61,147 nucleotides of DNA from Candidatus Woesearchaeota archaeon. Lineage in GTDB: Archaea; Nanobdellota; Nanobdellia; Woesearchaeales; ARS49. Below the pieces are notes generated by a model. It saw nothing but the letters and a program-made list of their open reading frames with translations. It did not search any database and was not told the DNA's origin. This document shows positions 42,172 through 61,031 of this stretch, one piece after another (positions within the stretch are counted from its first letter, which is position 1; every line of letters starts with the position of its first letter). Position numbers and translations under genes: made by a program. The stretch spans positions 1 through 61,147 of the forward strand of contig JAFGHW010000048.1 of the NCBI GenBank assembly GCA_016929895.1. The letters run 5' to 3'.

Positions 42172-43527
42172 ATGAGATTGATTGACAAACTAAATCTTCT
42201 CCAAAACAAGAAGATTTTAGTGCTAGGAGACTTGATGCTTGATGAGTATGAATACGGCGAAGTTTCCAGAATATCGCAAGAAGCTCCTGTTCAGGTAGTA
42301 AAGTTTGAATATTCAAAAAAAGTTATTGGAGGGGCGGGAAATACCGCCAATAACCTTGTTTCATTAGGGGCAGAAGTTTTTCTTGCAGGGATTGTTGGAT
42401 CTGATCGGAAACACAAAGAACTTCTTGAATGTCTTAAACAAGCCAATATTAATTCAGAAGGAGTTATTACTGATAATACAAAGCCGACCATTGTGAAAAA
42501 AAGAATAGTTTCTGGAAAAAATCAATTAATACGAATCGATTATGAAGATAATAAACCCATCGATCATGAAGCACAAGAGAAAATTAAGCAATTCATACAG
42601 AAAAAAATAGATTTAGTAGATGTTATAGTAATCAGCGATTATGACAAAGGATTAATTAATGTTGACTTAATGAAATTTTTAATCAACTTATCTAATGAAA
42701 AAAAAATTCCGACTGTTTTAGACGGCAAATCACAAAATTTAGAATGTTTTAAGGATGTAACTTTAATAACACCCAATATACAGGAAGCCAGGCAAATGTC
42801 AGGCATTTATGACAACGTGGAAGAGATGGGCAAAGTTTTGGTTTCCAGGTTAAACACGAATCTTTTTTTAACTCGCGGAGCGGATGGGATATCTGTTTTT
42901 GAGAAAAATGGAAAAATAACTCATGTCCCAACTAAAAAAGTCCCAGTTTACGATGTTACAGGCGCAGGAGACACGGTTGTTGCAATATCCGCGCTTGGAC
43001 TGGCCAGCGGAATGAATTTTAAAGAAATCGCAGAAATAGCAAATATTGCAGGAAGAATAGTTGTTCAAAAACCGGGAACAGCTACTGTAACATTAGAAGA
43101 AATACGAAAAACAATGGATTCTATTTCTATACGAGAATCGCATGAAAAATACAAAAAAAAATGGGGCTATGAAGAATGGATAGTTAATTTAGATTCAGCA
43201 GGTTATTGCGGCAAAAAATTAATTTTAAATAAAGGTTATCAATGTTCTATACACTATCACAAAGAAAAAGATGAAGTTTTTTATATAAACAAAGGATTTG
43301 TATTGATGACTATCGATGGAAAACAAGAACTAATGAAACCAGAATCAAGAATACGAATCGAACCAGGAACAAGACACAGATTTATTGGGTTAACAGATGC
43401 AGAAATAATAGAGATTAGTTCATTTCATAAAGAAGAAGATAGTTATAGAGATGAGCCAAGCGGAAGGGTAAATGAGGAGAAGTTTAAAAATTATATTAAA
43501 AAATATTCAGATGAAATAAATGAATAA
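42172..43527 (+). CDS. D-glycero-beta-D-manno-heptose-7-phosphate kinase (RfaE domain I, PfkB family) fused to a C-terminal phosphomannose-isomerase-type cupin
   Basis: 451 aa. Kinase motifs are GGAGNTANN and DVTGAGDT. The cupin occupies residues about 329-432. Confidence 0.8.
   Translation: MRLIDKLNLLQNKKILVLGDLMLDEYEYGEVSRISQEAPVQVVKFEYSKKVIGGAGNTANNLVSLGAEVFLAGIVGSDRKHKELLECLKQANINSEGVITDNTKPTIVKKRIVSGKNQLIRIDYEDNKPIDHEAQEKIKQFIQKKIDLVDVIVISDYDKGLINVDLMKFLINLSNEKKIPTVLDGKSQNLECFKDVTLITPNIQEARQMSGIYDNVEEMGKVLVSRLNTNLFLTRGADGISVFEKNGKITHVPTKKVPVYDVTGAGDTVVAISALGLASGMNFKEIAEIANIAGRIVVQKPGTATVTLEEIRKTMDSISIRESHEKYKKKWGYEEWIVNLDSAGYCGKKLILNKGYQCSIHYHKEKDEVFYINKGFVLMTIDGKQELMKPESRIRIEPGTRHRFIGLTDAEIIEISSFHKEEDSYRDEPSGRVNEEKFKNYIKKYSDEINE
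43156..43467 (+). other. Cupin domain (type II phosphomannose isomerase C-terminal-like) inside the heptose kinase ORF
   Basis: The domain reads KKWGYEEWIV...KKLILNKGYQCSIHYHKEKDEVFYINKGFVLMTIDG...IRIEPGTRHRFIG...IIEISS...EEDSYRDEPSGR. It parallels the WG...K.i.v.PG..lS.Q.H.hR.EhW.vv.G.a...HR..N...iEvq.G..l.EdDI.R..D.YGR pattern of GMP/PMI C-terminal domains. Confidence 0.7.
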
Positions 43528-46754: not shown

Positions 46755-49700
46755 TCAATCTATCTCGATAATTTTTATCTTAAAATTTAACGTCTGATTT
46801 CCAAGAGGATGTTTTTTAGCATTAATACCATAAGCATCTTCAGGGGCGATTTTTGTAGTCTTGACAGAACCTTTTTGCATACCTTTAACCCCTTCATCAA
46901 AACCCTTAATCATTTTTCCTTCGCCCACTTTGAATTGCAAGGGAGTATTTTCATATTCATCAAAATCTGCGTTTTTGGAAATATTTTTAGAGTTCCAATC
47001 ATTTATACTCGAATCAAAAACAGTTCCATTTTCAAGCCAACCAATATATTCAACAACAACAATATCGCCTTTGGAAACAATTGTCTTTTCAATCAAATCA
47101 GGATGAATATTGGGCTTATGGCCCTCCCAATCTGCTTTCCAAACATAAATCATTCCGCCAGTGACCTGCCTTTGTTCATCAAAAAGATCAAAATGTTTAA
47201 GTCCATGACCTTTTAAGAAAAATAATCTTGTAAACATGCTCATAGCAAGCTCTTTTGAAACAAGAATACTACTGTATCCGCTTCCTTCAGGAATCAAAAC
47301 AGCAGAAATTTCAACTTCAGTATTATCGAATTCTTTTTCAATTACTTTTTTAGATTCTTTATCAATATAAACCAAAGATTTTGGAACTCCTGCTCTATTT
47401 TGGATATTAATTAATGCGGTATATTCTGAATTATTCTTCTTAACAATCAAGCCATTACTGCATTTAATTATATTGTTGCTTTCTGCGCACCCACTAATAC
47501 TTGAAGCAAAACCAGGCCATGGAGAAATCCATGCATTTGCTTCTTTCTCATCTGTAATAGCTTGGGCTTCAAAATAAATATTCTCTGCTTGTTCTTCACT
47601 AAAATTATATTTTTCAACCATTGTTTGAACCGCTTCTGTCCTATCAAGACGCCTTAAATTAACCCAAACATCTGCACGTTTAAAATCCCATCCACCAAAA
47701 TGCGCCCAAACTCCTGCCTTATTAATCATATCCGCGGAAGTAATAAAATAATTTTCAGGAGGAGAACAATGAGTATATTGAAGAATTTCTTCCGGATCAT
47801 CAAAATATTCTGTTAAAATATCTTTTGCCTCTTCTTTCCCAACAGTGATTATTGTATAAATTAAATCAACACTTTTGGCAGTATCTTGAAGTTTTTCATT
47901 AATCAATTCAAATGCATTATTTGAACCGCAATCAAGCATGCGCAGAATACCAACAGCAACATCTTCATTATCTGTTAGAAGCGCCTTACCAATCCAATGA
48001 GCATGAGGATAATTCTGTGTTGCTCCGTCAAAAGTAACTGCCCTATCCGCAATATACTTAAAATGATGACCAAAATCCCACCAAGAATTAATAATTGCAT
48101 TAGGCGCAGATTCTTCTTTAATCTTAGTCAATGAATTCCACCAAGCATCATTAATTATAGGAAAATTATTGTTAATAGATGCATAACTGCTTTTAGTAGG
48201 CGAAATAAGCAAGATTCCAAATATTGTGATAATTACAATGCCAGAAACCCATTTTGGAATCTTTAACTCTTTTTTCATCCATTTAGAAACCCAAATATGA
48301 ATCATGCCTGCGGCAACACCAAAAGCAATTGAAAAAGCAGGCACTAAAAGTAAAACAAATCGAACACCTTTTGTTGAAGCGTATATCGTGCTCGCAAACC
48401 AAACAATCAATAAAACTGCATATTTAATATCCCTCCTTTTTCCTGAAGAATCTTTAATGGTTAGAGTTAATAGAATCCCAATTGAACTAATTAAAAAAAG
48501 AAATTTTCCTCCAATGCCATCAATAATCGAAGATATAGATGCGGGATTAAGTTCTGCAACAGTAGTGTAAACATTAGGCCATAAGTTAGCATGTGACGCT
48601 GCTTTGATTACTGTGAATGTAAACGGGGCAAGAATAATATTGGTAAATGAATCCACGCTTGAAAAGATACTTATAAATATTCCTGAGAAAATAAAAAAAG
48701 TGCATGCTATTAAAAAAATATTTTTTAATTCTCTACTTTCTTTAAGAAAACTTGGCTTTTTTATGATTTCTGTATAATTAAAAATGATTAAATAAGCCAA
48801 ATTTATAAATAACGTAATCAATAAGAAGTAGAAAACATACCACCAGCCCCCGGCCCATGCTTTTGAAAAAATTGCAAGAGAAAATGCAGTAAGAGCAGAG
48901 AATAAAAGTTTCTTTTTATAACTTTTGGCAATAATGCTTTCTATAAACAACCAAACTATCAGAATAGGAAAAAATATATTATACGCATCTGTATCTGCGT
49001 GCCCCCAAGGAGTTCTTCCAAGGGCGCCAACATTTAAAACCATCATAGACGCGGCAAAAAAACCTCCAACATTCCCTGCTAACCTTTTTCCAATAAAGAA
49101 AATTGGAAACAAAGACAGAAAAATCATTATAATGGGAAAATATGTTGCAGACTGCATCAATGGAATATTTGAATTAAAAAAACTCATTATTTTATACAAA
49201 AAAACAAGAAAAAAATGATGAAAATTAATACTTACTCGTCTTCCAAGCGGAGCAAGTGAATGATCATCCCATGTTGTGCCATCTTTGATAGTATCCGCAA
49301 AACTTCCAGTTTCAATTTTATTTCTCGCGAATCTCAAATAAGTATAAGGATCAATATCTGGCATGTATACATATGATTTACCATTACTTTCATATTGGAA
49401 TCTTGAACGAAATTGTTTGGCCATTTCTTTTATTTGCGCATCAACAGTTTCTTTTTGTTCAGAAAGAATTTTATTAAGCTCTTTATCAACTAACTTATTT
49501 TTATTTTCTTCAGGAAGATTTGGGTATTGCCTGTTGATTTGCTCACTAATCTGGTTCTTGTAAAAATTATGAACCGAATCTGCGGCCCAATTATCAATCT
49601 GAGGCAAATTCTGTGACTGCATTCTCATCCAAAGACCGCCCCAGGGGAAAAAGCCTGCGTTAGGCATGAACTGTAAAATAATCAAAAGTACCAGAATAAA

Positions 49701-49880
49701 AATTATTTGATGTTTTTTTACTAAATGGAATATTTTTGTAATGTCAATTGTTTGAAAAGAATCTTTATCTTGTCCTTCATCAACTCTGTTTTCAGGATGT
49801 TTAATATTTTTTTTTATTTTTCTAAAGAAATCTCCTATTTTCTTGAAATCTATACTTATTTCTTCATTACTTTCTTCCAT
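46755..49880 (-). CDS. aglB: Archaeal oligosaccharyltransferase AglB (STT3 family) with C-terminal FKBP-type peptidyl-prolyl isomerase domain
   Basis: 1041 aa, multi-pass in the N-terminal two thirds. The first-loop acidic motif is MPDIDPYTYLR. The WWDFG catalytic motif is encoded at nt 48069-48083. The last ~105 aa form an FKBP domain. Confidence 0.9.
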   Translation of the reverse strand: MEESNEEISIDFKKIGDFFRKIKKNIKHPENRVDEGQDKDSFQTIDITKIFHLVKKHQIIFILVLLIILQFMPNAGFFPWGGLWMRMQSQNLPQIDNWAADSVHNFYKNQISEQINRQYPNLPEENKNKLVDKELNKILSEQKETVDAQIKEMAKQFRSRFQYESNGKSYVYMPDIDPYTYLRFARNKIETGSFADTIKDGTTWDDHSLAPLGRRVSINFHHFFLVFLYKIMSFFNSNIPLMQSATYFPIIMIFLSLFPIFFIGKRLAGNVGGFFAASMMVLNVGALGRTPWGHADTDAYNIFFPILIVWLFIESIIAKSYKKKLLFSALTAFSLAIFSKAWAGGWWYVFYFLLITLFINLAYLIIFNYTEIIKKPSFLKESRELKNIFLIACTFFIFSGIFISIFSSVDSFTNIILAPFTFTVIKAASHANLWPNVYTTVAELNPASISSIIDGIGGKFLFLISSIGILLTLTIKDSSGKRRDIKYAVLLIVWFASTIYASTKGVRFVLLLVPAFSIAFGVAAGMIHIWVSKWMKKELKIPKWVSGIVIITIFGILLISPTKSSYASINNNFPIINDAWWNSLTKIKEESAPNAIINSWWDFGHHFKYIADRAVTFDGATQNYPHAHWIGKALLTDNEDVAVGILRMLDCGSNNAFELINEKLQDTAKSVDLIYTIITVGKEEAKDILTEYFDDPEEILQYTHCSPPENYFITSADMINKAGVWAHFGGWDFKRADVWVNLRRLDRTEAVQTMVEKYNFSEEQAENIYFEAQAITDEKEANAWISPWPGFASSISGCAESNNIIKCSNGLIVKKNNSEYTALINIQNRAGVPKSLVYIDKESKKVIEKEFDNTEVEISAVLIPEGSGYSSILVSKELAMSMFTRLFFLKGHGLKHFDLFDEQRQVTGGMIYVWKADWEGHKPNIHPDLIEKTIVSKGDIVVVEYIGWLENGTVFDSSINDWNSKNISKNADFDEYENTPLQFKVGEGKMIKGFDEGVKGMQKGSVKTTKIAPEDAYGINAKKHPLGNQTLNFKIKIIEID
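46758..47090 (-). other. FKBP-type PPIase domain at the C-terminus of AglB
   Basis: The domain reads GDIVVVEYIGWLENGTVFDSS...PLQFKVGEGKMIKGFDEGVKGMQKGSVKTTKIAPEDAYG...LNFKIKIIEI. It matches the FKBP consensus GD.V.V.Y.G.L.dG..FDSS...P..F.lG.g.vI.G..eg..GM..G....l.IP...aYG. Confidence 0.85.
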
Positions 49881-53667: not shown

Positions 53668-54795
53668 ATGAGTAAATATTCAAGAATACTTGTTGCAGGA
53701 ACGGCTTTATTAGCTCTTTATTCAATTATGGGCGGATGCCGTTCTTCACAAAAATATACTGTTCCTGGAATGAATAAAAATTCTTTTGCAGGCTATTCTC
53801 TTAAAAAATCACCTTCTGGCCAGCTTATAATATCACAAGCAGATGATTCTGAGCCTTTATTTTCAGAACCTGCAGAGGATTCATATCAAGGTTCTTACCA
53901 AGACAAAAATGTAAATGTGATTGTTAAACCAAGAACAAAAAGAAAAGTATTAACAGACATTGCAGCAAAAATTGAAGCAGGAAAAGAATACCAGGAAGCA
54001 AGAGCAGGCACAAAAGCAATAATCAGACCAGATGAATCTTGGAGAATAATCCCTGAAATAACAGGAGCAATAGCAACAAAGCCTTATTCTGATGGACGCT
54101 CTGCGCAATTAGACCAATTAGTTGCTGGTATAAGAGCTGGGGCATATCAGCCAATGCGAATAGGAGACTTTATTGATGGATTTGCAAAAGACCTACAATT
54201 ATATTTAGAAGGCGGTGCTCATATAATGGGCGGAAAATACAACGGAAGACTTGATGAAGAACATTATGCCGCCCTAGCAAGAATAGGAATAGGCTTATTC
54301 TCACAAGAAGCAGGAACATATCTAAAAGCAATGTTAGCAGCAGGACCAGGAAGATTTTCAATAGACTTAACTGATGAAGACAGAGAGAGATTAGGATTAG
54401 ATTCAAATACAATAAGTGATTCGTTAGTAAGAGCAATTATTGATGTTCAAGCAAGACAAGATATTTGGAAAGGGATATATGCCAAAGGAAGATTTAATGT
54501 TTCTGTACAGAATAGAGAGAATTGGGATAATTACAGAGCAATTGCTTCTGAATTAGGAATAGGACTTAGAGGAGAATTCCCTGGAGTTTTTGAAAGATGG
54601 TATATGGAAGCATTGGCAACATATAGAGATGAATTAGACCAATATTTCAATAATACATCTGCAAACCGGAACATATTTGGCGGAAGAATTGGAGCAGGAG
54701 CACAGATTGGAAGAAACAGCGTAGTAGAATTAGCATTAGAATACGACGAAGAACTTTTATTAAGCTTAATATTGCAATGGCTAGTTAGGCTTTGA
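53668..54795 (+). CDS. Secreted or lipid-anchored protein of unknown function (lipobox-like signal)
   Basis: 375 aa. The N-terminal hydrophobic segment ends in LYSIMGGC. The composition is rich in Gly/Ala/Arg, unlike the Lys/Ile/Asn-rich glycan-locus proteins. Confidence 0.5.
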   Translation: MSKYSRILVAGTALLALYSIMGGCRSSQKYTVPGMNKNSFAGYSLKKSPSGQLIISQADDSEPLFSEPAEDSYQGSYQDKNVNVIVKPRTKRKVLTDIAAKIEAGKEYQEARAGTKAIIRPDESWRIIPEITGAIATKPYSDGRSAQLDQLVAGIRAGAYQPMRIGDFIDGFAKDLQLYLEGGAHIMGGKYNGRLDEEHYAALARIGIGLFSQEAGTYLKAMLAAGPGRFSIDLTDEDRERLGLDSNTISDSLVRAIIDVQARQDIWKGIYAKGRFNVSVQNRENWDNYRAIASELGIGLRGEFPGVFERWYMEALATYRDELDQYFNNTSANRNIFGGRIGAGAQIGRNSVVELALEYDEELLLSLILQWLVRL

Positions 54796-54804
54796 GGTTA
54801 AAAA

Positions 54805-56379
54805 ATGGCAGAAGAAAATGGCAATCAAGATAAGGATCCTAAAAGACCGTCGTTAGGCGAGATGTTTAAAAAAATGGATGAGAAAGGAAAGAAAGGTGCA
54901 AAACCAATAGAAGAAGATCAACCAGGCGAAACAGTTACAGATGTGCCTGATATTAGTGGAGGTATAACTGATGATAGTTTTTCAGAAAGAAGAACAAGAG
55001 AAGCTGAGAATACTCCAGAAAGTGGCGATTCAGGATTGTTATACGATAATCTCGATAATCTAAATCTTGACGAAGAACCAAATCCTGCAGAACCATTACC
55101 GCAAGAAATTGTTCCTGAACAACCTTCTGAAGCAGGTATGCAACCGCCATCACAAGAGGGTTTTCCTGAAGATTTTTATGAAGACGATACGCCACCACAA
55201 GCATCATCACAAATACCAAGATCTGCATTTGGAAGTGCAATAAGACATCCTGCAGTGACTATGTTGGGCGCGGGAGTGATAGCATTTTTACTACTTCAAG
55301 CATCAAATTTTATGGCAAATTGGTATACCTCATCTAAGAAAAAAGATAAAACAGAAGCATCTATCCCGGCTGAAGATTCAGATTTAGAAGGCATTTCAGC
55401 AGAACTAAAAAAGCTGGGAGCAAAATTTGATATTAACGAATCAAACAATCGCAGGAAATACATTAGCATGATTGAATCTAATAAAAAATTAGAAGCAAAA
55501 GTATCTGACTTGGAACAATTAAAAACAAATCCAGAAACAGCACCAATGAAAGAAATGGAAGATTATCAAAAAGAAATTATGATAAGTAATAAGCGCATGA
55601 TGGATGCATATCGCAAAGAACTGCAAAACCGTGTTAATGCTGCATTAAAATCAATAAAGAATACAGGAGGCTCTGTGCAAGTAAGACCAATAGAAACAAC
55701 AGAACCTATAAAACCAGTAGAGCCTAAAGAAAAACCAAACGATAAACCAGAATATGATCCAATTACGCAATACAATGATTTAATGGAAATGACAACCAAA
55801 GATGAGATTATAACATCATATGAATTAGCACAAGCAACTAGCAATTGCAGACACATATTAGGTTTATTGCAAAAAAATCACCCTGTTTACGGCAAATTTG
55901 CAAGAAACAGCGAAACAATCAGAACATTAGAGCAAACTGCTAACAAATATTTAAACTTTGCAAATCAAGTACTCTTGGAAAATGAAACAGTCCAGCATAA
56001 TGAGAAATACAAAAAAGTAGAATTAAGAATAAATATAGATGCTTTGAAAAATGGCGCTGAAAAAAGCAAAAGCACAGGATGGATGGATTTAGAAATATCT
56101 TTATCTGATTTTTTTAAAATAGATAGTAATGTATATTTAGCATTGATAGTTAATTATGGAAATCCTGTTTCAGTCCTAAAACAAGGCAAAGCAGCAGAAG
56201 AATTTGTCTATAAATTACTAGAAAATGCAAAGATTTTTGATTCTGGCAAAGCATTCACAGCAGATGCAATTAAAAATGCAAAAGTAAAAGGATTAGCATT
56301 AAGATTAACCTCGCCTGATGGCGCAGAACTAACTGCAAAAAATTTACAAGATTATTTAAAACAAGATAGGGGGGATTAA
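54805..56379 (+). CDS. Single-pass membrane protein with ~150-aa acidic/proline-rich N-terminal region and helical C-terminal domain; function unknown
   Basis: 524 aa with one hydrophobic helix (AVTMLGAGVIAFLLLQASNF). The start lies 9 nt after the preceding stop. AGGT lies 8 nt upstream (within TGAGGTTAAAAA, which abuts the ATG). Confidence 0.5.
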   Translation: MAEENGNQDKDPKRPSLGEMFKKMDEKGKKGAKPIEEDQPGETVTDVPDISGGITDDSFSERRTREAENTPESGDSGLLYDNLDNLNLDEEPNPAEPLPQEIVPEQPSEAGMQPPSQEGFPEDFYEDDTPPQASSQIPRSAFGSAIRHPAVTMLGAGVIAFLLLQASNFMANWYTSSKKKDKTEASIPAEDSDLEGISAELKKLGAKFDINESNNRRKYISMIESNKKLEAKVSDLEQLKTNPETAPMKEMEDYQKEIMISNKRMMDAYRKELQNRVNAALKSIKNTGGSVQVRPIETTEPIKPVEPKEKPNDKPEYDPITQYNDLMEMTTKDEIITSYELAQATSNCRHILGLLQKNHPVYGKFARNSETIRTLEQTANKYLNFANQVLLENETVQHNEKYKKVELRINIDALKNGAEKSKSTGWMDLEISLSDFFKIDSNVYLALIVNYGNPVSVLKQGKAAEEFVYKLLENAKIFDSGKAFTADAIKNAKVKGLALRLTSPDGAELTAKNLQDYLKQDRGD

Positions 56380-57057
56380 ATGTTAAAAAAACCAAAACTA
56401 ACCATTTTATCCATACTAATAATCGCCATGCTTGCGGCAGTACCATTAATTTCTGCTTTTGATGACGCTTTTGATGAATTTTTTACAGAAGACTCTTTTT
56501 TTACAGAAGACGGGGATTTTATATTTGAAGACGATCCTGATTTTTTTGTGTATTACCCAGAAGATGAAAGCCTTCTTTATGACGAACCATACGATGATTT
56601 ATTTATCGGCGACCCATTTGAAGACCCAATGATATTTGATGATTCATTTGATGTTCCTGGAGATGACATGCCTGAAATGGCGCCTCAAGATATACCTCTA
56701 GCACACCAACCAGAAGAACAACCTCCAGTAATAATTCGTGAAAAAGGACTAAGCATACAAATCACAGGAACAAGAATGCCTGATGAAATCAATGCAGGAG
56801 ACCAGCTATTATTAAGAATATACCTAAAAAATAATGGCAAAGAAAATCTAGACAACCTAAAAATCACTTTAGTAAACCAAGAATTGGCATTAAGACGCAG
56901 TGTTGGGCCTATGGATTTGAAAAAAGGAGACAAAGAAACCGAAATATTGCTATTAGACTTCCCATATGACACAGAATCAGGCTATTATTACCTAAGAATA
57001 AATGTTCATGCAAATGGAATAGACAGAGTTATATACCGTGATATATATGTTAGATAA
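56380..57057 (+). CDS. Secreted protein: signal peptide, Asp/Glu/Phe-rich tract, CARDB/S-layer-like beta domain
   Basis: 225 aa with the signal LTILSILIIAMLAAVPLISA. The tract reads FDDAFDEFFTEDSFFTEDGDFIFEDDPDFF.... The C-terminal domain reads LLLRIYLKNNGKENLDNLKITLVNQ. The ATG directly abuts the preceding TAA. Confidence 0.55.
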   Translation: MLKKPKLTILSILIIAMLAAVPLISAFDDAFDEFFTEDSFFTEDGDFIFEDDPDFFVYYPEDESLLYDEPYDDLFIGDPFEDPMIFDDSFDVPGDDMPEMAPQDIPLAHQPEEQPPVIIREKGLSIQITGTRMPDEINAGDQLLLRIYLKNNGKENLDNLKITLVNQELALRRSVGPMDLKKGDKETEILLLDFPYDTESGYYYLRINVHANGIDRVIYRDIYVR

Positions 57058-57186
57058 TAGCCGGAATAGTTACTTTATGATAGTCATATGAAATATATAG
57101 AAACTACTCAAGAATGATAAATCATAGAAAACTTTAAATACTCAAGCTTCATAAACCATATAAAATATGTGATTGGGGGTTGGAAA

Positions 57187-58428
57187 ATGAATATAACAAA
57201 GTTAATACCAATAATGGTTCTATTCTTAGTATTAGCAGTAGCAAGCGTAAGCGCACTGCCAATAACTATTGAAAAAGTAAAAATAGACGACACCATACTA
57301 GAGCCAAACGAATCAAACAAATTAAGCATAGAAAGAGGAGACGAACTACCAGTAGACGTATATTTTACTGTATCTGAAGACGTAGAAAATCTAGAAGTAC
57401 TAGCATTTATCTCAGGATACGAATACAACTACCTAGACCCTGTATCAGACTCTATAGGACCATTTGATGCAGAAGCAGATGTAAAATATCACAAAAAATT
57501 AAAACTAAACCTAAATGATGATTTTGACGAAGACAGCTACAAACTAAGAATAGTAGTATCAGACAGATACGGCGAAGAAGTAATCCAATCCTTTAACCTA
57601 AAAGTAGATGTACCAAGACACGAACTAAAAATCCAAGACGTAATCTTCAACCCTGAACTAAACATAAAAGCAGGAAGCGCGCTATTGGCGCAGGTAAGAC
57701 TAGAAAACAAAGGGGAAAAACAAGAAGACGACATAAAAGTAAAAGTATCAATACCAGAACTAGGGGTATCAGGAGCAGACTATGTAGATGAAATTGAAGA
57801 TACAGATGACAGCGAAGAATCAGAAGAAATCTACCTAAGAATACCAATGTGCGCAAAACCAGGAATATATGAAGTTAAAGTTTCAGCAGAATACGCAAAC
57901 GGACGAAGACAAATATCAACAATAAAATCAATAAATATCGAAGCAAATGACATGTGCGAAGAAACACCAAAAGTAAAAACAACAATAACTTTAGGAAAAC
58001 AACTAGAGAATGTATTGGCTGGAGAAACTGCAACCTATCCAATAACAATAACTAATAACTTAAAACAAAGCAAAAGCTACACAGTTAGCCTTGATGCAGG
58101 AGACTGGGCAGAAAGTGTTAAACTAACACCAGCAAGCACAATACTTGTTGACGGAGAAAGCTCAGAGACAATCTATGTTCATGCAACAACAGACTCAAAA
58201 ACAACAGGAGCAAAAGTATTAACTGCAACAATCAGCTCAGCAGGAAATACATTAAAACAACTAATATTAACTACAAATATTACAGCAAAACCATCAAATT
58301 GGCTAAAGCTAGCATTTGAAGCAATAGTGATTATTCTAGCAATCTTAGTAATACTAGTTGCAATAATCGTTGGATACTTAAAGTTAAAAGAAGACAACGA
58401 CGACACACAATCTGAAACCTACTATTAA
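57187..58428 (+). CDS. S-layer-like / CARDB-domain surface protein with C-terminal TM anchor
   Basis: The ATG at 57187 gives MNITKLIPIMVLFLVLAVASVSA (signal peptide). Repeated beta domains include VRLENKGEKQEDDIKVKVSIPELG and PITITNNLKQSKSYTVSL. The C-terminal helix is AIVIILAILVILVAIIVGYL. Confidence 0.6.
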   Translation: MNITKLIPIMVLFLVLAVASVSALPITIEKVKIDDTILEPNESNKLSIERGDELPVDVYFTVSEDVENLEVLAFISGYEYNYLDPVSDSIGPFDAEADVKYHKKLKLNLNDDFDEDSYKLRIVVSDRYGEEVIQSFNLKVDVPRHELKIQDVIFNPELNIKAGSALLAQVRLENKGEKQEDDIKVKVSIPELGVSGADYVDEIEDTDDSEESEEIYLRIPMCAKPGIYEVKVSAEYANGRRQISTIKSINIEANDMCEETPKVKTTITLGKQLENVLAGETATYPITITNNLKQSKSYTVSLDAGDWAESVKLTPASTILVDGESSETIYVHATTDSKTTGAKVLTATISSAGNTLKQLILTTNITAKPSNWLKLAFEAIVIILAILVILVAIIVGYLKLKEDNDDTQSETYY

Positions 58429-58472: not shown

Positions 58473-61031
58473 ATGAAAAAACTAATAATAACAACATTAG
58501 TGGTGATTCTGCTTCTTTTACCTGTAACTCTTGCCCAAGAAGATTTTACTGCGCAAGCAAAATCATTATATTCCCTTGAAAAATGCGTTAGTGAGAAAAA
58601 TATAATCACATTAACAAATACAGGAACACAAACAAACAATTATTTAATCGCAGGTGCGGGAAAAACCAAAGACTGGGTTCAATATCCCGGAATGTTCTCT
58701 ATCGAGCCAGGAAAAACAGTAAATGTAGAAACAATAATAGCAATTCCATGCGTTATTCCTGCAGGAAATTATCAACTAATACACTTAGTTTCAACAACTA
58801 CTGGCTTGGAAAAAGAAATAATCCAAGACTTGGTAGTTGAAGACACACAAAATATCATAGTAACAGTTGATTCAACAGAAAAAACAATAAAACCATGCAC
58901 CGAAGCGGCATATTCACTTAAAATAACAAATCCTTCAAGCTTTCAAGAAAAATATAAACTTTCTATAGACAACCCGGACGCAGAATTATCCACAGAAGAA
59001 ATAACAATAAATCCAAACGAAACAAAACAAATAACACTTACATTTGAACCAACAGATTGCTTTCAAACAGGCGAAAAAACACTGTTGTTTTCTGCTGAAA
59101 CCGAAAAAACAAAATTAATAGCAGAATTAGACCTTTTTGTTGAAATCCAAAATTATGGACTGCCAGAAATAGCATCAGGAGTCAACAAAATCAGAACATA
59201 TTATAATGAAAATATAGTTGATTTAGAAATTTTAAACAAGGGAGAGGAAGATACAAGTTATATTGTAAGCGTAACCGGAGCAGACTGGATAACAGTATCA
59301 CCAAGAATATTATCAGTAGAGCGCGGTAAAACAGAAGAAATAACCCTGAATTTGGCGCCAACTTCAGAAATAAAAAAAGGGAAATATCCAATTAAAATAA
59401 GCGCAGAACTAGAAGAAACGGGCGCAAAATATGAAAAAGAAATAATAGTAAAGCTAACCACTCATGGAGTTATTGACAATCTTTTTGACAAATACCTGCC
59501 ATTAACAGTTCTAATTATAATCGCATTGATAGTATTTGGAATAATCTCAGTTTATGCAATACAACACATGTCCACAGAAGAATACCAAAAACAAAAATTA
59601 AAAAGGCTAAAAGAAAAAGAAAAATTAAAGAAACAGCGCGAAAGAGAAAAAGCAAGAAAGAAAAAAGAAAAAGAACGACTAAAAAAAGAACGCGCTAATG
59701 AAAAGAAAAGAATAAAAGAAGAACGCCAAAAACAAAAAGAGAAAAAAATGCGGGAAAAAGAACGCAAAAAAGAAGCAAAACTAAGACTAAAAGCGCAAAA
59801 AGAAAAAGACCTGGAACGAAAAAGAAAAGAAAAAGAAAAAGAAGAAAAGAAAAGAGCACAAACATATCAAAAAGAACTAAGAAAAGAATATCATATAATC
59901 GCCAGAAAAGACATAATCGCGGGGAAACAAGAAAGAAAAATATTCTCTAAACTACTATTTGTATTGATACTACTTGTTCTTTTGGTAATAGCAATTGTTT
60001 TTATCAAACCAATCATAAACAACGTAAAATACGTTCTTCTAGGAATAATACTGCTGATATTATTATTTATTCTCGGAAAAATAAGACGAAAAAGAATAGT
60101 TAAAACAAAATGGAAAGGAATATCCTTAGCAAAAGAGAAAAAGATATTTGACATAAACTGGAAAAAAGGACTGCAACAAATCAAAATTAAACTAGAAACC
60201 CCAATTAAAAATTTTGCTGCCAAAGTAAAAAAAGGCCGCGGAAGAAACGAACGATACATATGCATAGACGAGCATATATACCAATATTTCAGAACAGAAA
60301 CAAACACAGACCAAGAAAATATTTCTGAAACAGAAATAACCTTCAAAGTCCCGCAAAAATGGCTCAAAAATAAAAAAATAGATGAAGAAGAAGTAGCACT
60401 TTATTACTTAGATAACGGAGAATGGAAAGAAATAGAAACAGAAAAAACAGGCTGGGACGAAAAATACGTATTTTTCAAAGCATATGCTGAGAAACTAGGC
60501 CAATTTGCAATAATCGGAACAGAAACAGCAGAAGAAATCAAAGAAGAAAAACCAAAAAAAAGCAAAGGCATACTAGCATTGATAGGCATTATAGTTATTG
60601 CTTTATTGATATTCTTATTATTAAAACCTGCTTCTATAGAACCAACAGCAGGAATTCCAACCCAAACATGGCTGCAAGGAGAACAACAAAGCCTTGATTT
60701 AAACGATTATTTTAAAGACCCTGACGGAGATTTATTAGAATTTAGTGCACTTAATGAAGTAGAAAATATAGACATATGGTTTAAAGATGGAATAGCATAT
60801 CTGACTCCTGACGCAGACTTTACAGGTGAAAGAACAATTATATTCGCAGCAGACGACAACAAAGGAGGATATGCAGAAAGCAATCCTGTAAAATTAATTG
60901 TTAAGAACAAGGTAATGAACAGCACATCTAAAATTATTAAATACGGATTAGGAATAATAATACTATTAGCCATAATAACAGTTATAATTAAATTCATTTT
61001 GATGATTAGAGAGAATTTAAGGGATGATTAA
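58473..61031 (+). CDS. Large mosaic surface/membrane protein: signal peptide, three CARDB-like domains, five hydrophobic helices, Lys/Glu/Arg-rich tract, PGF-pre-PGF-like domain, cadherin/Ig-like domain
   Basis: 852 aa. Predicted TM helices are encoded near nt 59497-59562, 59950-60005, 60033-60077, 60565-60625 and 60940-61000. The charged tract is encoded at about 59575-59890. Confidence 0.6.
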   Translation: MKKLIITTLVVILLLLPVTLAQEDFTAQAKSLYSLEKCVSEKNIITLTNTGTQTNNYLIAGAGKTKDWVQYPGMFSIEPGKTVNVETIIAIPCVIPAGNYQLIHLVSTTTGLEKEIIQDLVVEDTQNIIVTVDSTEKTIKPCTEAAYSLKITNPSSFQEKYKLSIDNPDAELSTEEITINPNETKQITLTFEPTDCFQTGEKTLLFSAETEKTKLIAELDLFVEIQNYGLPEIASGVNKIRTYYNENIVDLEILNKGEEDTSYIVSVTGADWITVSPRILSVERGKTEEITLNLAPTSEIKKGKYPIKISAELEETGAKYEKEIIVKLTTHGVIDNLFDKYLPLTVLIIIALIVFGIISVYAIQHMSTEEYQKQKLKRLKEKEKLKKQREREKARKKKEKERLKKERANEKKRIKEERQKQKEKKMREKERKKEAKLRLKAQKEKDLERKRKEKEKEEKKRAQTYQKELRKEYHIIARKDIIAGKQERKIFSKLLFVLILLVLLVIAIVFIKPIINNVKYVLLGIILLILLFILGKIRRKRIVKTKWKGISLAKEKKIFDINWKKGLQQIKIKLETPIKNFAAKVKKGRGRNERYICIDEHIYQYFRTETNTDQENISETEITFKVPQKWLKNKKIDEEEVALYYLDNGEWKEIETEKTGWDEKYVFFKAYAEKLGQFAIIGTETAEEIKEEKPKKSKGILALIGIIVIALLIFLLLKPASIEPTAGIPTQTWLQGEQQSLDLNDYFKDPDGDLLEFSALNEVENIDIWFKDGIAYLTPDADFTGERTIIFAADDNKGGYAESNPVKLIVKNKVMNSTSKIIKYGLGIIILLAIITVIIKFILMIRENLRDD
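59575..59890 (+). repeat. A-dominated, overwhelmingly purine low-complexity tract (coding for a Lys/Glu/Arg-rich segment)
   Basis: About 300 nt of aaag/gaaa/agaa-type sequence with few pyrimidines on the + strand. It translates to EEYQKQKLKRLKEKEKLKKQREREKARKKKEKERLKKERANEKKRIKEERQKQKEKKMREKERKKEAKLRLKAQKEKDLERKRKEKEKEEKKRAQ. Confidence 0.8.

Follow-up and report, generated by a model that had tools for sequence, protein, structure and literature searches.

A conserved, probably five-pass envelope protein of a Woesearchaeota family with a PGF-pre-PGF domain predicted to face the cytoplasm

The 852-aa gene and its conservation

The window analysed here is the whole 61,147-nt contig JAFGHW010000048.1 of a Candidatus Woesearchaeota archaeon (assembly GCA_016929895.1), which belongs to an 873-kb genome that is 92% complete. 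The open reading frame (ORF) 58473..61031 (+) encodes a protein of 852 aa and its stop codon lies 116 bases before the contig end. An independent contig from the sole DNA run holding the sequence (X1, probably the source sample) reaches 2078 bases past the end of the window, therefore the contig end is an assembly limit. Among the runs listed, none of RNA contains the sequence. A preliminary description had depicted the protein as a mosaic of anchored surface modules, and the domain order given there agrees with the ORF, the hydropathy and the family scans. The parts, with transmembrane (TM) helices numbered from the N-terminus and models made with AlphaFold2 (AF2; pLDDT, predicted local distance difference test), are the following:

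58473..58535 (+): signal peptide, residues 1–21 (MKKLIITTLVVILLLLPVTLA), from hydropathy; an N-terminal hydrophobic segment is present in 19/19 close sequences
58545..59456 (+): three Ig-like beta-sandwich ectodomains, residues 25–123, 129–225 and 231–328 (AF2 pLDDT >90; FixG_C)
59496..59561 (+): TM1, residues 342–363, predicted out to in (hydropathy; 19/19)
59571..59933 (+): basic lysine/glutamate/arginine-rich (K/E/R) helix tract, residues 367–487, predicted cytoplasmic (composition, AF2)
59940..60080 (+): TM hairpin, TM2 490–511, loop KPIINNVK 512–519 (8 residues), TM3 520–536 (hydropathy)
60096..60524 (+): PGF-pre-PGF (TIGR04213) domain, residues 542–684, basic, predicted cytoplasmic, predicted GAIN-B/ZU5/FIIND-like fold
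60567..60623 (+): TM4, residues 699–717, predicted in to out (hydropathy, K/R flanks)
60651..60905 (+): cadherin-like/Big_9 ectodomain, residues 727–811 (Pfam; AF2 pLDDT 91–94)
60942..61031 (+): TM5, residues 824–845, short cytoplasmic tail RENLRDD and stop (hydropathy)

The three N-terminal domains, previously taken for CARDB-like, are Ig-like beta-sandwiches: CARDB (PF07705) is not among the 25 listed of the 27 Pfam families that match at E<=1, FixG_C matches domain 3 with 47.5 bits, and the Ig models ASH, HYDIN and Cep192 give sub-threshold matches to domains 2 and 3. They carry four near-invariant cysteines (C38, C93, C142 and C196). The tract behind TM1, described before as about 105 aa of Lys, Glu and Arg only, comprises in fact 121 aa with 66% E/K/R (55 K+R vs 27 D+E, net charge about +28), has few hydrophobic residues without a heptad pattern, spans 89–144 aa between TM1 and TM2 across the 19 close sequences, and is encoded by purine-rich, low-complexity DNA. 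AF2 models TM1 and the next 70 residues as one continuous helix (within the tract, helix 369–439 at pLDDT 56–73). Three residues of the hairpin (N517, G524 and L528) are invariant in the same 19 sequences, and relatives bear one or two such hairpins. TM4 is preceded by KPKKSKG and followed by the juxtamembrane motif GIPxQxW (residues 727–733, window 60651–60671), which, together with the DPDGD-type motif of the cadherin-like domain (60717–60731), forms the best conserved stretches of the whole protein; I728, F747, D749, D751 and D795 are invariant in all 59 family sequences defined below, and P729, Q731, P750 and D753 recur in 90% or more of them. The Big_9 (PF17963) and Cadherin_5 (PF17892) matches to residues 736–803 are just sub-threshold (22.1 bits vs a cut-off of 23.6, and 20.3 vs 26.5), and in the orthologue P0006 both exceed their cut-offs (31.6 and 28.1 bits). 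The full-length AF2 model, built from a 59-row alignment, has a mean pLDDT of 80, with 87–96 for the five globular units.

A search of 5.8 billion proteins identified 18 full-length orthologues (784–880 aa, 30–72% identity), several of which carry the source name 'PGF-pre-PGF domain-containing protein [Candidatus Woesearchaeota archaeon]'. All cover 94–100% of the query except P0015, whose best local alignment spans only 42% of it, yet which has an equal length and the same TM pattern. A signal peptide and five TMs are found in 19/19 close sequences, i.e. the 852-aa protein and these orthologues. Together with 40 representatives from a search of 1.84 billion proteins (50% clustering) they make up a family set of 59 members, all of which keep the fused domain order of the 852-aa protein. 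In the six-frame search of 40 related genomes, 21 of 24 genomes that share the taxonomic family of this one matched at E<=1e-20, a count that takes in the unpublished genomes G003 and G012 (19/22 without them); the matches are mostly single open frames of about 750–1070 aa, and the three genomes without such a match are 90%, 65% and 76% complete. Among longer proteins, a domain-profile search of a large protein database returned only the same family and three relatives. Of the short matches to the C-terminal half (P0034, P0067, P0139, P0045, P0092, P0115 and P0119), the first three were rejected as contig-edge fragments with no start Met.

The ORF is one genuine conserved gene of Woesearchaeota-type (DPANN) archaea, neither a chimera nor a recent fusion. 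The joining of two or three type-I surface proteins, which had been offered as an explanation for the mosaic, would be at best an old evolutionary event, as the fused form in 59/59 members speaks against a recent one. No published description of this 852-aa family was found in the literature on PGF-pre-PGF, ZU5, DPANN and Woesearchaeota surface proteins.

Predicted membrane topology and the PGF-pre-PGF domain

The resemblance of the domain behind TM3 to the archaeal PGF-pre-PGF module, noted in the preliminary description, is confirmed by the NCBIfam model TIGR04213 (PGF_pre_PGF), which scores 60.3 bits on residues 568–682 and 64.2 bits on the excised domain (cut-off 28), matches 15/15 family domains tested, and has the 852-aa protein as its single match in the 873-kb genome. 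The name of this model refers to PGF-CTERM/archaeosortase A substrates, which are archaeal surface proteins. It had also been remarked that an ordinary TM helix stands where a PGF-CTERM would be expected, and this holds: an ordinary TM and 135 more residues come after the domain, and neither PGF-CTERM (TIGR04126), archaeosortase A (TIGR04125) nor the exosortase family (PF09721) has a match in the 92%-complete genome.

Counting of helices had placed this surface module, unexpectedly, in the cytoplasm, and all computed sequence signals agree with the count. The mean net charge over the 19 close sequences is -17 for the N-terminal ectodomain, +21 for the K/E/R tract, about 0 for the hairpin loop, +11 for the PGF-pre-PGF region and -4 for the cadherin-like region, and the C-terminal tail is basic; the 12-residue flanks of TM3 contain on average 1.0 K/R before and 5.0 after the helix, and those of TM4 3.2 before and 0.8 after. 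This pattern agrees with a predicted out/in/out/in/out/in topology. The number of TMs between the N-terminal ectodomain and the PGF-pre-PGF domain is 3 in 46/59 members, 5 in 12/59 and 2 in 1/59, the last being P0052, in which the second hairpin helix is present, only weakly hydrophobic. Between the PGF-pre-PGF and the cadherin-like domain there is exactly one TM in 59/59 members, and one more TM follows the cadherin-like domain. The TM counts of the 59 members thus indicate that extra helices are always paired. As a side observation, a second hairpin occurs in some relatives (P0132, P0112, P0164 and other 7-TM members), and P0132 carries the GAIN/ZU5-like domain twice, the copies being separated by 2 TMs, therefore the whole unit of hairpin and domain can duplicate.

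Natural variants in the related genomes change the number of helices and keep the parity. In the 575-aa protein L024, which lacks the cytoplasmic modules, the signal peptide and three Ig-like domains are followed by two TMs with a 30-residue loop containing 11 K/R between them, then by a cadherin-like domain, a TM and a basic tail; L028 likewise has 2 TMs between the two ectodomains, and L027 has 6. In L030 the PGF-pre-PGF domain lies between two single TMs, with the ectodomains flanking. A single gene of L029 carries a TM and two hairpins ahead of the domain, and behind it a TM, the cadherin-like domain and another TM, with three basic inside loops, and the N-terminal ectodomain in that genome resides in separate upstream genes; L032 is the C-terminal half alone, starting with 86 residues without a signal peptide, followed by the hairpin and the domain. 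Since these two genomes encode the halves separately, the modules are separable. With 2, 4 or 6 TMs between both ectodomains the parity stays even, and every variant fits a predicted arrangement in which the Ig-like and cadherin-like domains would lie outside and the TM1–TM4 segment, except the hairpin loop, inside.

A hairpin that is not inserted into the membrane, proposed earlier as a way out of the paradox, leaves the parity unchanged and offers no escape, because TM1 alone puts the downstream part inside. As hydropathy, the positive-inside rule and the TM-count parity agree, the paradox seems best resolved by accepting a cytoplasmic placement of the PGF-pre-PGF-like domain. Of the outcome envisaged in the preliminary description, a consistently fused architecture with all globular domains predicted outside, the fused architecture was found in the orthologues and the all-outside topology was not.

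This placement differs from that in the classical relatives of the domain. The related genomes contain 19 other ORFs (L034–L052, from G006–G039) that match the PGF-pre-PGF part only. In 19/19 the domain is near the C-terminus and is followed by exactly one TM; ahead of it, 12/19 have only an N-terminal signal-type segment, 2/19 have extra hydrophobic segments, and 5/19, N-terminally cut by a contig or locus edge, have no TM, so that 17/19 show no further hydrophobic segment before the domain. Such a layout (signal peptide, large ectodomain, domain, single TM) is, judging by sequence, the classical extracellular arrangement. The two classes compare as follows:

19 classical paralogues: domain net charge -3.1; K+R 11%; K/R flanking the next TM, 1.7 ahead and 4.0 behind
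59 family members: domain net charge +13.3; K+R 19%; K/R flanking the next TM, 4.7 ahead and 1.6 behind

The profile-profile alignment of both classes (hhalign probability 99.8%, E 7e-30, 149 columns) and the common motifs VYQY, FKVxKxW and FAI indicate that they are clearly homologous. We infer that in this family the PGF-pre-PGF domain was probably recruited to the inner membrane face from its usual outside position, immediately ahead of a C-terminal anchor.

Predicted fold, junction and competing explanations

The AF2 model of the domain alone (residues 538–698, 15-row alignment) has a pLDDT of 87.8 and a predicted template modelling score (pTM) of 0.81. The fold search with this model (VIA-align, 48,161 PDB representatives) identified GAIN-B domains, namely BAI3 (4dlo_B; Z 10.0, root mean square deviation 3.3 over 132 residues), CD97 (Z 9.9 and 9.8) and CELSR1 (8.6), with other G-protein-coupled receptors (GPCRs) of the adhesion type at Z 6.4–7.8. 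It likewise identified the ZU5 domains of ankyrin (Z 9.1, 8.8 and 8.5) and of the cytoplasmic part of UNC5b (6.7), the FIIND domains of CARD8 (8.8) and NLRP1 (7.0), and three axonemal chains (7.6–8.5), while the first clearly unrelated entry has Z 6.3. The top set of Foldseek comprises the NLRP1 FIIND, CD97, the BAI3 GAIN domain (4dlo_A, TMq 0.60) and the ankyrin ZU5 domain. In the ESM Atlas, which we used as a source of leads only, the domain is close to archaeal clusters (0.90–0.94), a PGF-CTERM cluster (0.85) and a ZU5 cluster (0.84). The archaeal PGF-pre-PGF domain is thus predicted to have the GAIN-B/ZU5/FIIND fold, and folds of this group are found on both sides of eukaryotic membranes.

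FIIND, like GAIN, cleaves itself in the turn ahead of its last strand. The corresponding turn of the 852-aa protein reads K-L-G676-Q-F-A-I, with the junction L675–G676 at 60495–60500 and the strand QFAIIG behind it. The residue at +1 is Ser in 16/19 paralogues and Gly in 55/59 family members; as a side observation, the turn of the paralogues can be summarised as 'PG[F/L]-S-x-FAI', with F or L at -1 in 19/19 and Gly, not His, at -2 in 13/19. A recent preprint describes extracellular microbial forms of GAIN termed 'MAIN' (Brogan & Rudner 2026, 10.64898/2026.05.12.724683), and according to its main text the GAIN motif is HX(S/T) and a bacterial MAIN domain is cut between F and S of HFS. The turn of the 852-aa domain (K-L-G, without His) does not have the HX(S/T) motif. 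From the sequence of the turn, the classical PGF-S domains are candidates for an archaeal, His-less branch of the autoproteolytic MAIN domains; with Gly at the position of the nucleophile, the PGF-pre-PGF domain of the 852-aa protein is most likely non-cleaving.

Is the ORF really translated into one polypeptide from one gene? An assembly chimera, joined within the purine-rich low-complexity tract, might be suspected because the independent X1 contigs break at 59811–59861, inside the K/E/R tract, with no single contig bridging this interval, and because the gene ends only 116 bases from the contig end. The X1 contigs cover both halves of the gene with similar depth on the two sides of the break (22.9 vs 26.1) and are neutral with regard to the join. 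However, the 18 orthologues, which come from other sources (jgi, ena, ncbi, lgn), keep this order throughout the tract, and the genomes of relatives carry single open frames through it, so that a chimera, which the preliminary description had asked to be checked, is excluded by the orthologues and not by the reads, and can be regarded as extremely improbable. It is also quite unlikely, though less so, that the ORF is a polyprotein-like precursor or contains internal starts, from which an N-terminal type-I protein and a C-terminal module would arise as separate polypeptides. Such processing would suit an N-terminal third that by itself resembles an entire surface protein of type I, with its signal peptide, three Ig-like domains and TM1, the separate encoding of the parts in two related genomes (the C-terminal half alone in L032, upstream ectodomain genes in L029) and a fold family known for autoproteolysis (Brogan & Rudner 2026). 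Yet the form is fused in 59/59 members, none of the internal Met residues is conserved (M366 is the only one that recurs, in 7/19), the residue aligned to the nucleophilic Ser is Gly in 55/59, and the topology problem would be the same even after cleavage; the internal starts or proteolysis considered in the preliminary description thus find no support.

A different way to remove the paradox would be to keep the PGF-pre-PGF domain outside, as in its classical relatives, if the hairpin crossed the membrane only once (in which case the cadherin-like domain would come to lie inside) or if TM3 and TM4 did not both span it. The domain is extracellular and directly ahead of a membrane anchor in all 19 paralogous contexts, the succession of domain, linker and TM4 resembles that classical module, and the two hairpin helices are nearly continuous in some members (loop of 0–1 residues in P0018 and P0019). 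This arrangement appears unlikely, however, given that the cadherin-like domain is a typical repeat of giant surface proteins and is predicted outside in L024, where the 30-aa loop with 11 K/R and the basic tail fix the orientation. Moreover, the K/R flanks of TM3 and TM4 in the family point the opposite way, the family domain is strongly basic (+13.3 vs -3.1 in the paralogues), and added hydrophobic helices come only in pairs.

Gene neighbourhood, proposed role and comparison with known systems

Five genes on one strand, which encode 375, 524, 225, 419 and 852 aa, form a cassette with the 852-aa gene in last place. The cassette adjoins genes for AglB(STT3)-FKBP, GT2/GT9 glycosyltransferases and a PMT_2-type transferase. 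Two of its neighbours in the cassette are:

56380..57057 (+): acidic secreted protein of 225 aa whose C-terminal domain is Ig-like
57169..58428 (+): 419-aa type-I membrane protein built of a signal peptide, Ig-like domains, a TM and a short tail with YY at its end

In 10/10 loci of relatives the orthologue has the 419-aa gene immediately upstream; the C-terminal domain of the 225-aa protein is encoded upstream in 7/10 and AglB within the analysed stretch in 4/10. Genes downstream converge on the gene. The 419-aa and 852-aa proteins have no significant similarity by BLASTP (best E 0.087), and complex prediction for residues 22–335 of the 852-aa protein with the ectodomain 30–378 of the 419-aa protein gave scores of 0.00 and 0.00, which are uninformative either way. 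In 11/12 members of the 419-aa family (from the window and L014–L024) the sequence ends in '-YY'; the cytoplasmic tail has 12–17 residues, and Y418 and Y419 are near-invariant. Judging from these sequences, the YY tail could be a docking motif, with the basic GAIN/ZU5-like domain as a candidate receptor.

The 225-aa protein shows a weak match to the S-layer-type model PACE-CTERM-PROT (23.5 bits, far below the 110-bit cut-off). The first two genes of the cassette (53668–56379, +) have no family match: the 375-aa protein has an N-terminal hydrophobic segment ending in a lipobox-like GGC, and the 524-aa protein combines an acidic N-terminus with a single central TM and a region rich in K/E. Farther upstream, 46755–49880 (-) encodes the AglB/STT3 oligosaccharyltransferase with a C-terminal FKBP domain (STT3 122.9 bits, FKBP_C 72.2 bits), and 42172–43527 (+) a PfkB-type sugar kinase fused to a cupin domain, adjoined by genes for a HAD phosphatase, a cytidylyltransferase-like protein and GT9.

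Such a composition of domains suggests that the 852-aa protein is probably a transmembrane scaffold for adhesion or the envelope, with five passes and a non-cleaving cytoplasmic docking domain of GAIN/ZU5-like type; we consider this reading reasonably, not highly, probable. After cleavage of the signal peptide the chain would pass the membrane five times. Outside it would expose three Ig-like domains of the disulfide type and one Ca-binding cadherin-like domain, i.e. two adhesion-type modules, and inside the basic K/E/R helix and, directly behind TM3, a beta-sandwich that is basic as well. The beta-sandwich may serve for docking, comparable to the use of ZU5 in ankyrin and UNC5, so that the protein, as a scaffold or adhesin, would link binding by the ectodomains, or contacts in a lattice, with a partner in the cytoplasm. 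It would probably act jointly with the co-encoded 419-aa Ig-like type-I protein, as part of a cassette located beside N-glycosylation genes.

Several points weigh against this picture. The role proposed derives solely from domain types and gene neighbourhood, and the TM calls, made from Kyte-Doolittle windows and the positive-inside rule, are purely computational. The pTM of the full-length AF2 model is 0.38, therefore the model is uninformative on the relative placement of the domains, and the density of N-glycosylation sequons (0.43–0.57 per 100 aa in all three globular regions) does not discriminate between inside and outside. As the domain is extracellular in the 19 paralogues, its cytoplasmic placement runs counter to the family norm. 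The loss of Ser is no necessary mark of an inside location either, since the between-TM variants P0172 and P0174 keep the F-S junction. As to the fold, the Pfam models ZU5 (PF00791), GPS, GAIN and FIIND gave no sequence match to the domain alone at E<=0.01, where the sole match is ComC_SSD (18.8 bits); searches of solved chains by sequence, with the domain and with both class alignments, returned nothing meaningful, and the link to the GAIN/ZU5 fold is only a structural prediction.

Or perhaps the domain could be a mirror image of the GAIN module, a prokaryotic outside-in mechanotransducer with the fold of adhesion GPCRs on the opposite side of the membrane? The last strand QFAIIG, whose xFAI resembles the tethered strand of GAIN, is tied by about 15 residues to TM4 and thence to GIPxQxW and the cadherin-like domain; a pull from outside, e.g. 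upon contact with a host cell, could strain or extract this strand, and either a mechanical signal would pass inward or a partner, e.g. the YY tail of the 419-aa protein, would be released. We regard this possibility as very improbable.

DPANN archaea live attached to other cells, and proteins linking their surface with the interior are, to our knowledge, very poorly characterised; the putative scaffold would be of interest for this reason, all the more as its family is present in most sampled genomes (21/24) of one Woesearchaeota family. The PGF-pre-PGF domain is apparently able to work on either side of the membrane, in parallel to the eukaryotic split between extracellular GAIN and cytoplasmic ZU5/FIIND. 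The two classes form a natural pair (outside, slightly acidic, 'F-S' vs inside, basic, 'L-G') that makes the questions of autoproteolysis and topology directly testable.

Among known systems, the ER/K single alpha-helices come closest to the tract behind TM1 (121 aa, 66% E/K/R, no heptad, a long straight helix in AF2). ER/K helices are charge-balanced, whereas the tract is strongly basic and both of its ends are tied to one membrane. To TIGR04213 proteins the 852-aa domain is linked by a hidden Markov model score above the cut-off and by shared core motifs; unlike in these proteins, it lies between TMs, is predicted inside and is basic instead of slightly acidic, its junction reads 'KL-G' instead of 'PG[F/L]-S', and a PGF-CTERM/archaeosortase partner was not found in this genome. 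With GAIN and MAIN it shares the predicted fold, the position as a membrane-proximal beta-sandwich with a TM helix directly after, and a host protein with Ig-like and cadherin-like adhesion domains. The main text of the preprint states that 'virtually all' MAIN proteins have a signal peptide, adhesion or enzyme domains, MAIN and an anchor; the terms 'PGF', 'TIGR04213' and 'ZU5' are absent from that main text, and the TIGR04213 proteins may be within its set of 15,000 (Brogan & Rudner 2026). The domains described there are extracellular and cleave at HX(S/T), in contrast to the L-G junction without His and the predicted cytoplasmic location found here. ZU5 and FIIND also have the predicted fold of the 852-aa domain, which, as in UNC5, is predicted on the cytoplasmic side of a transmembrane adhesion-type receptor. 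The ZU5 domain of ankyrin is a non-cleaving form. The differences are that PF00791 has no match, that no UPA or death domain follows, and that the domain is clamped between two TMs. By analogy, in its use the 852-aa domain would be closest to the cytoplasmic ZU5 domains.

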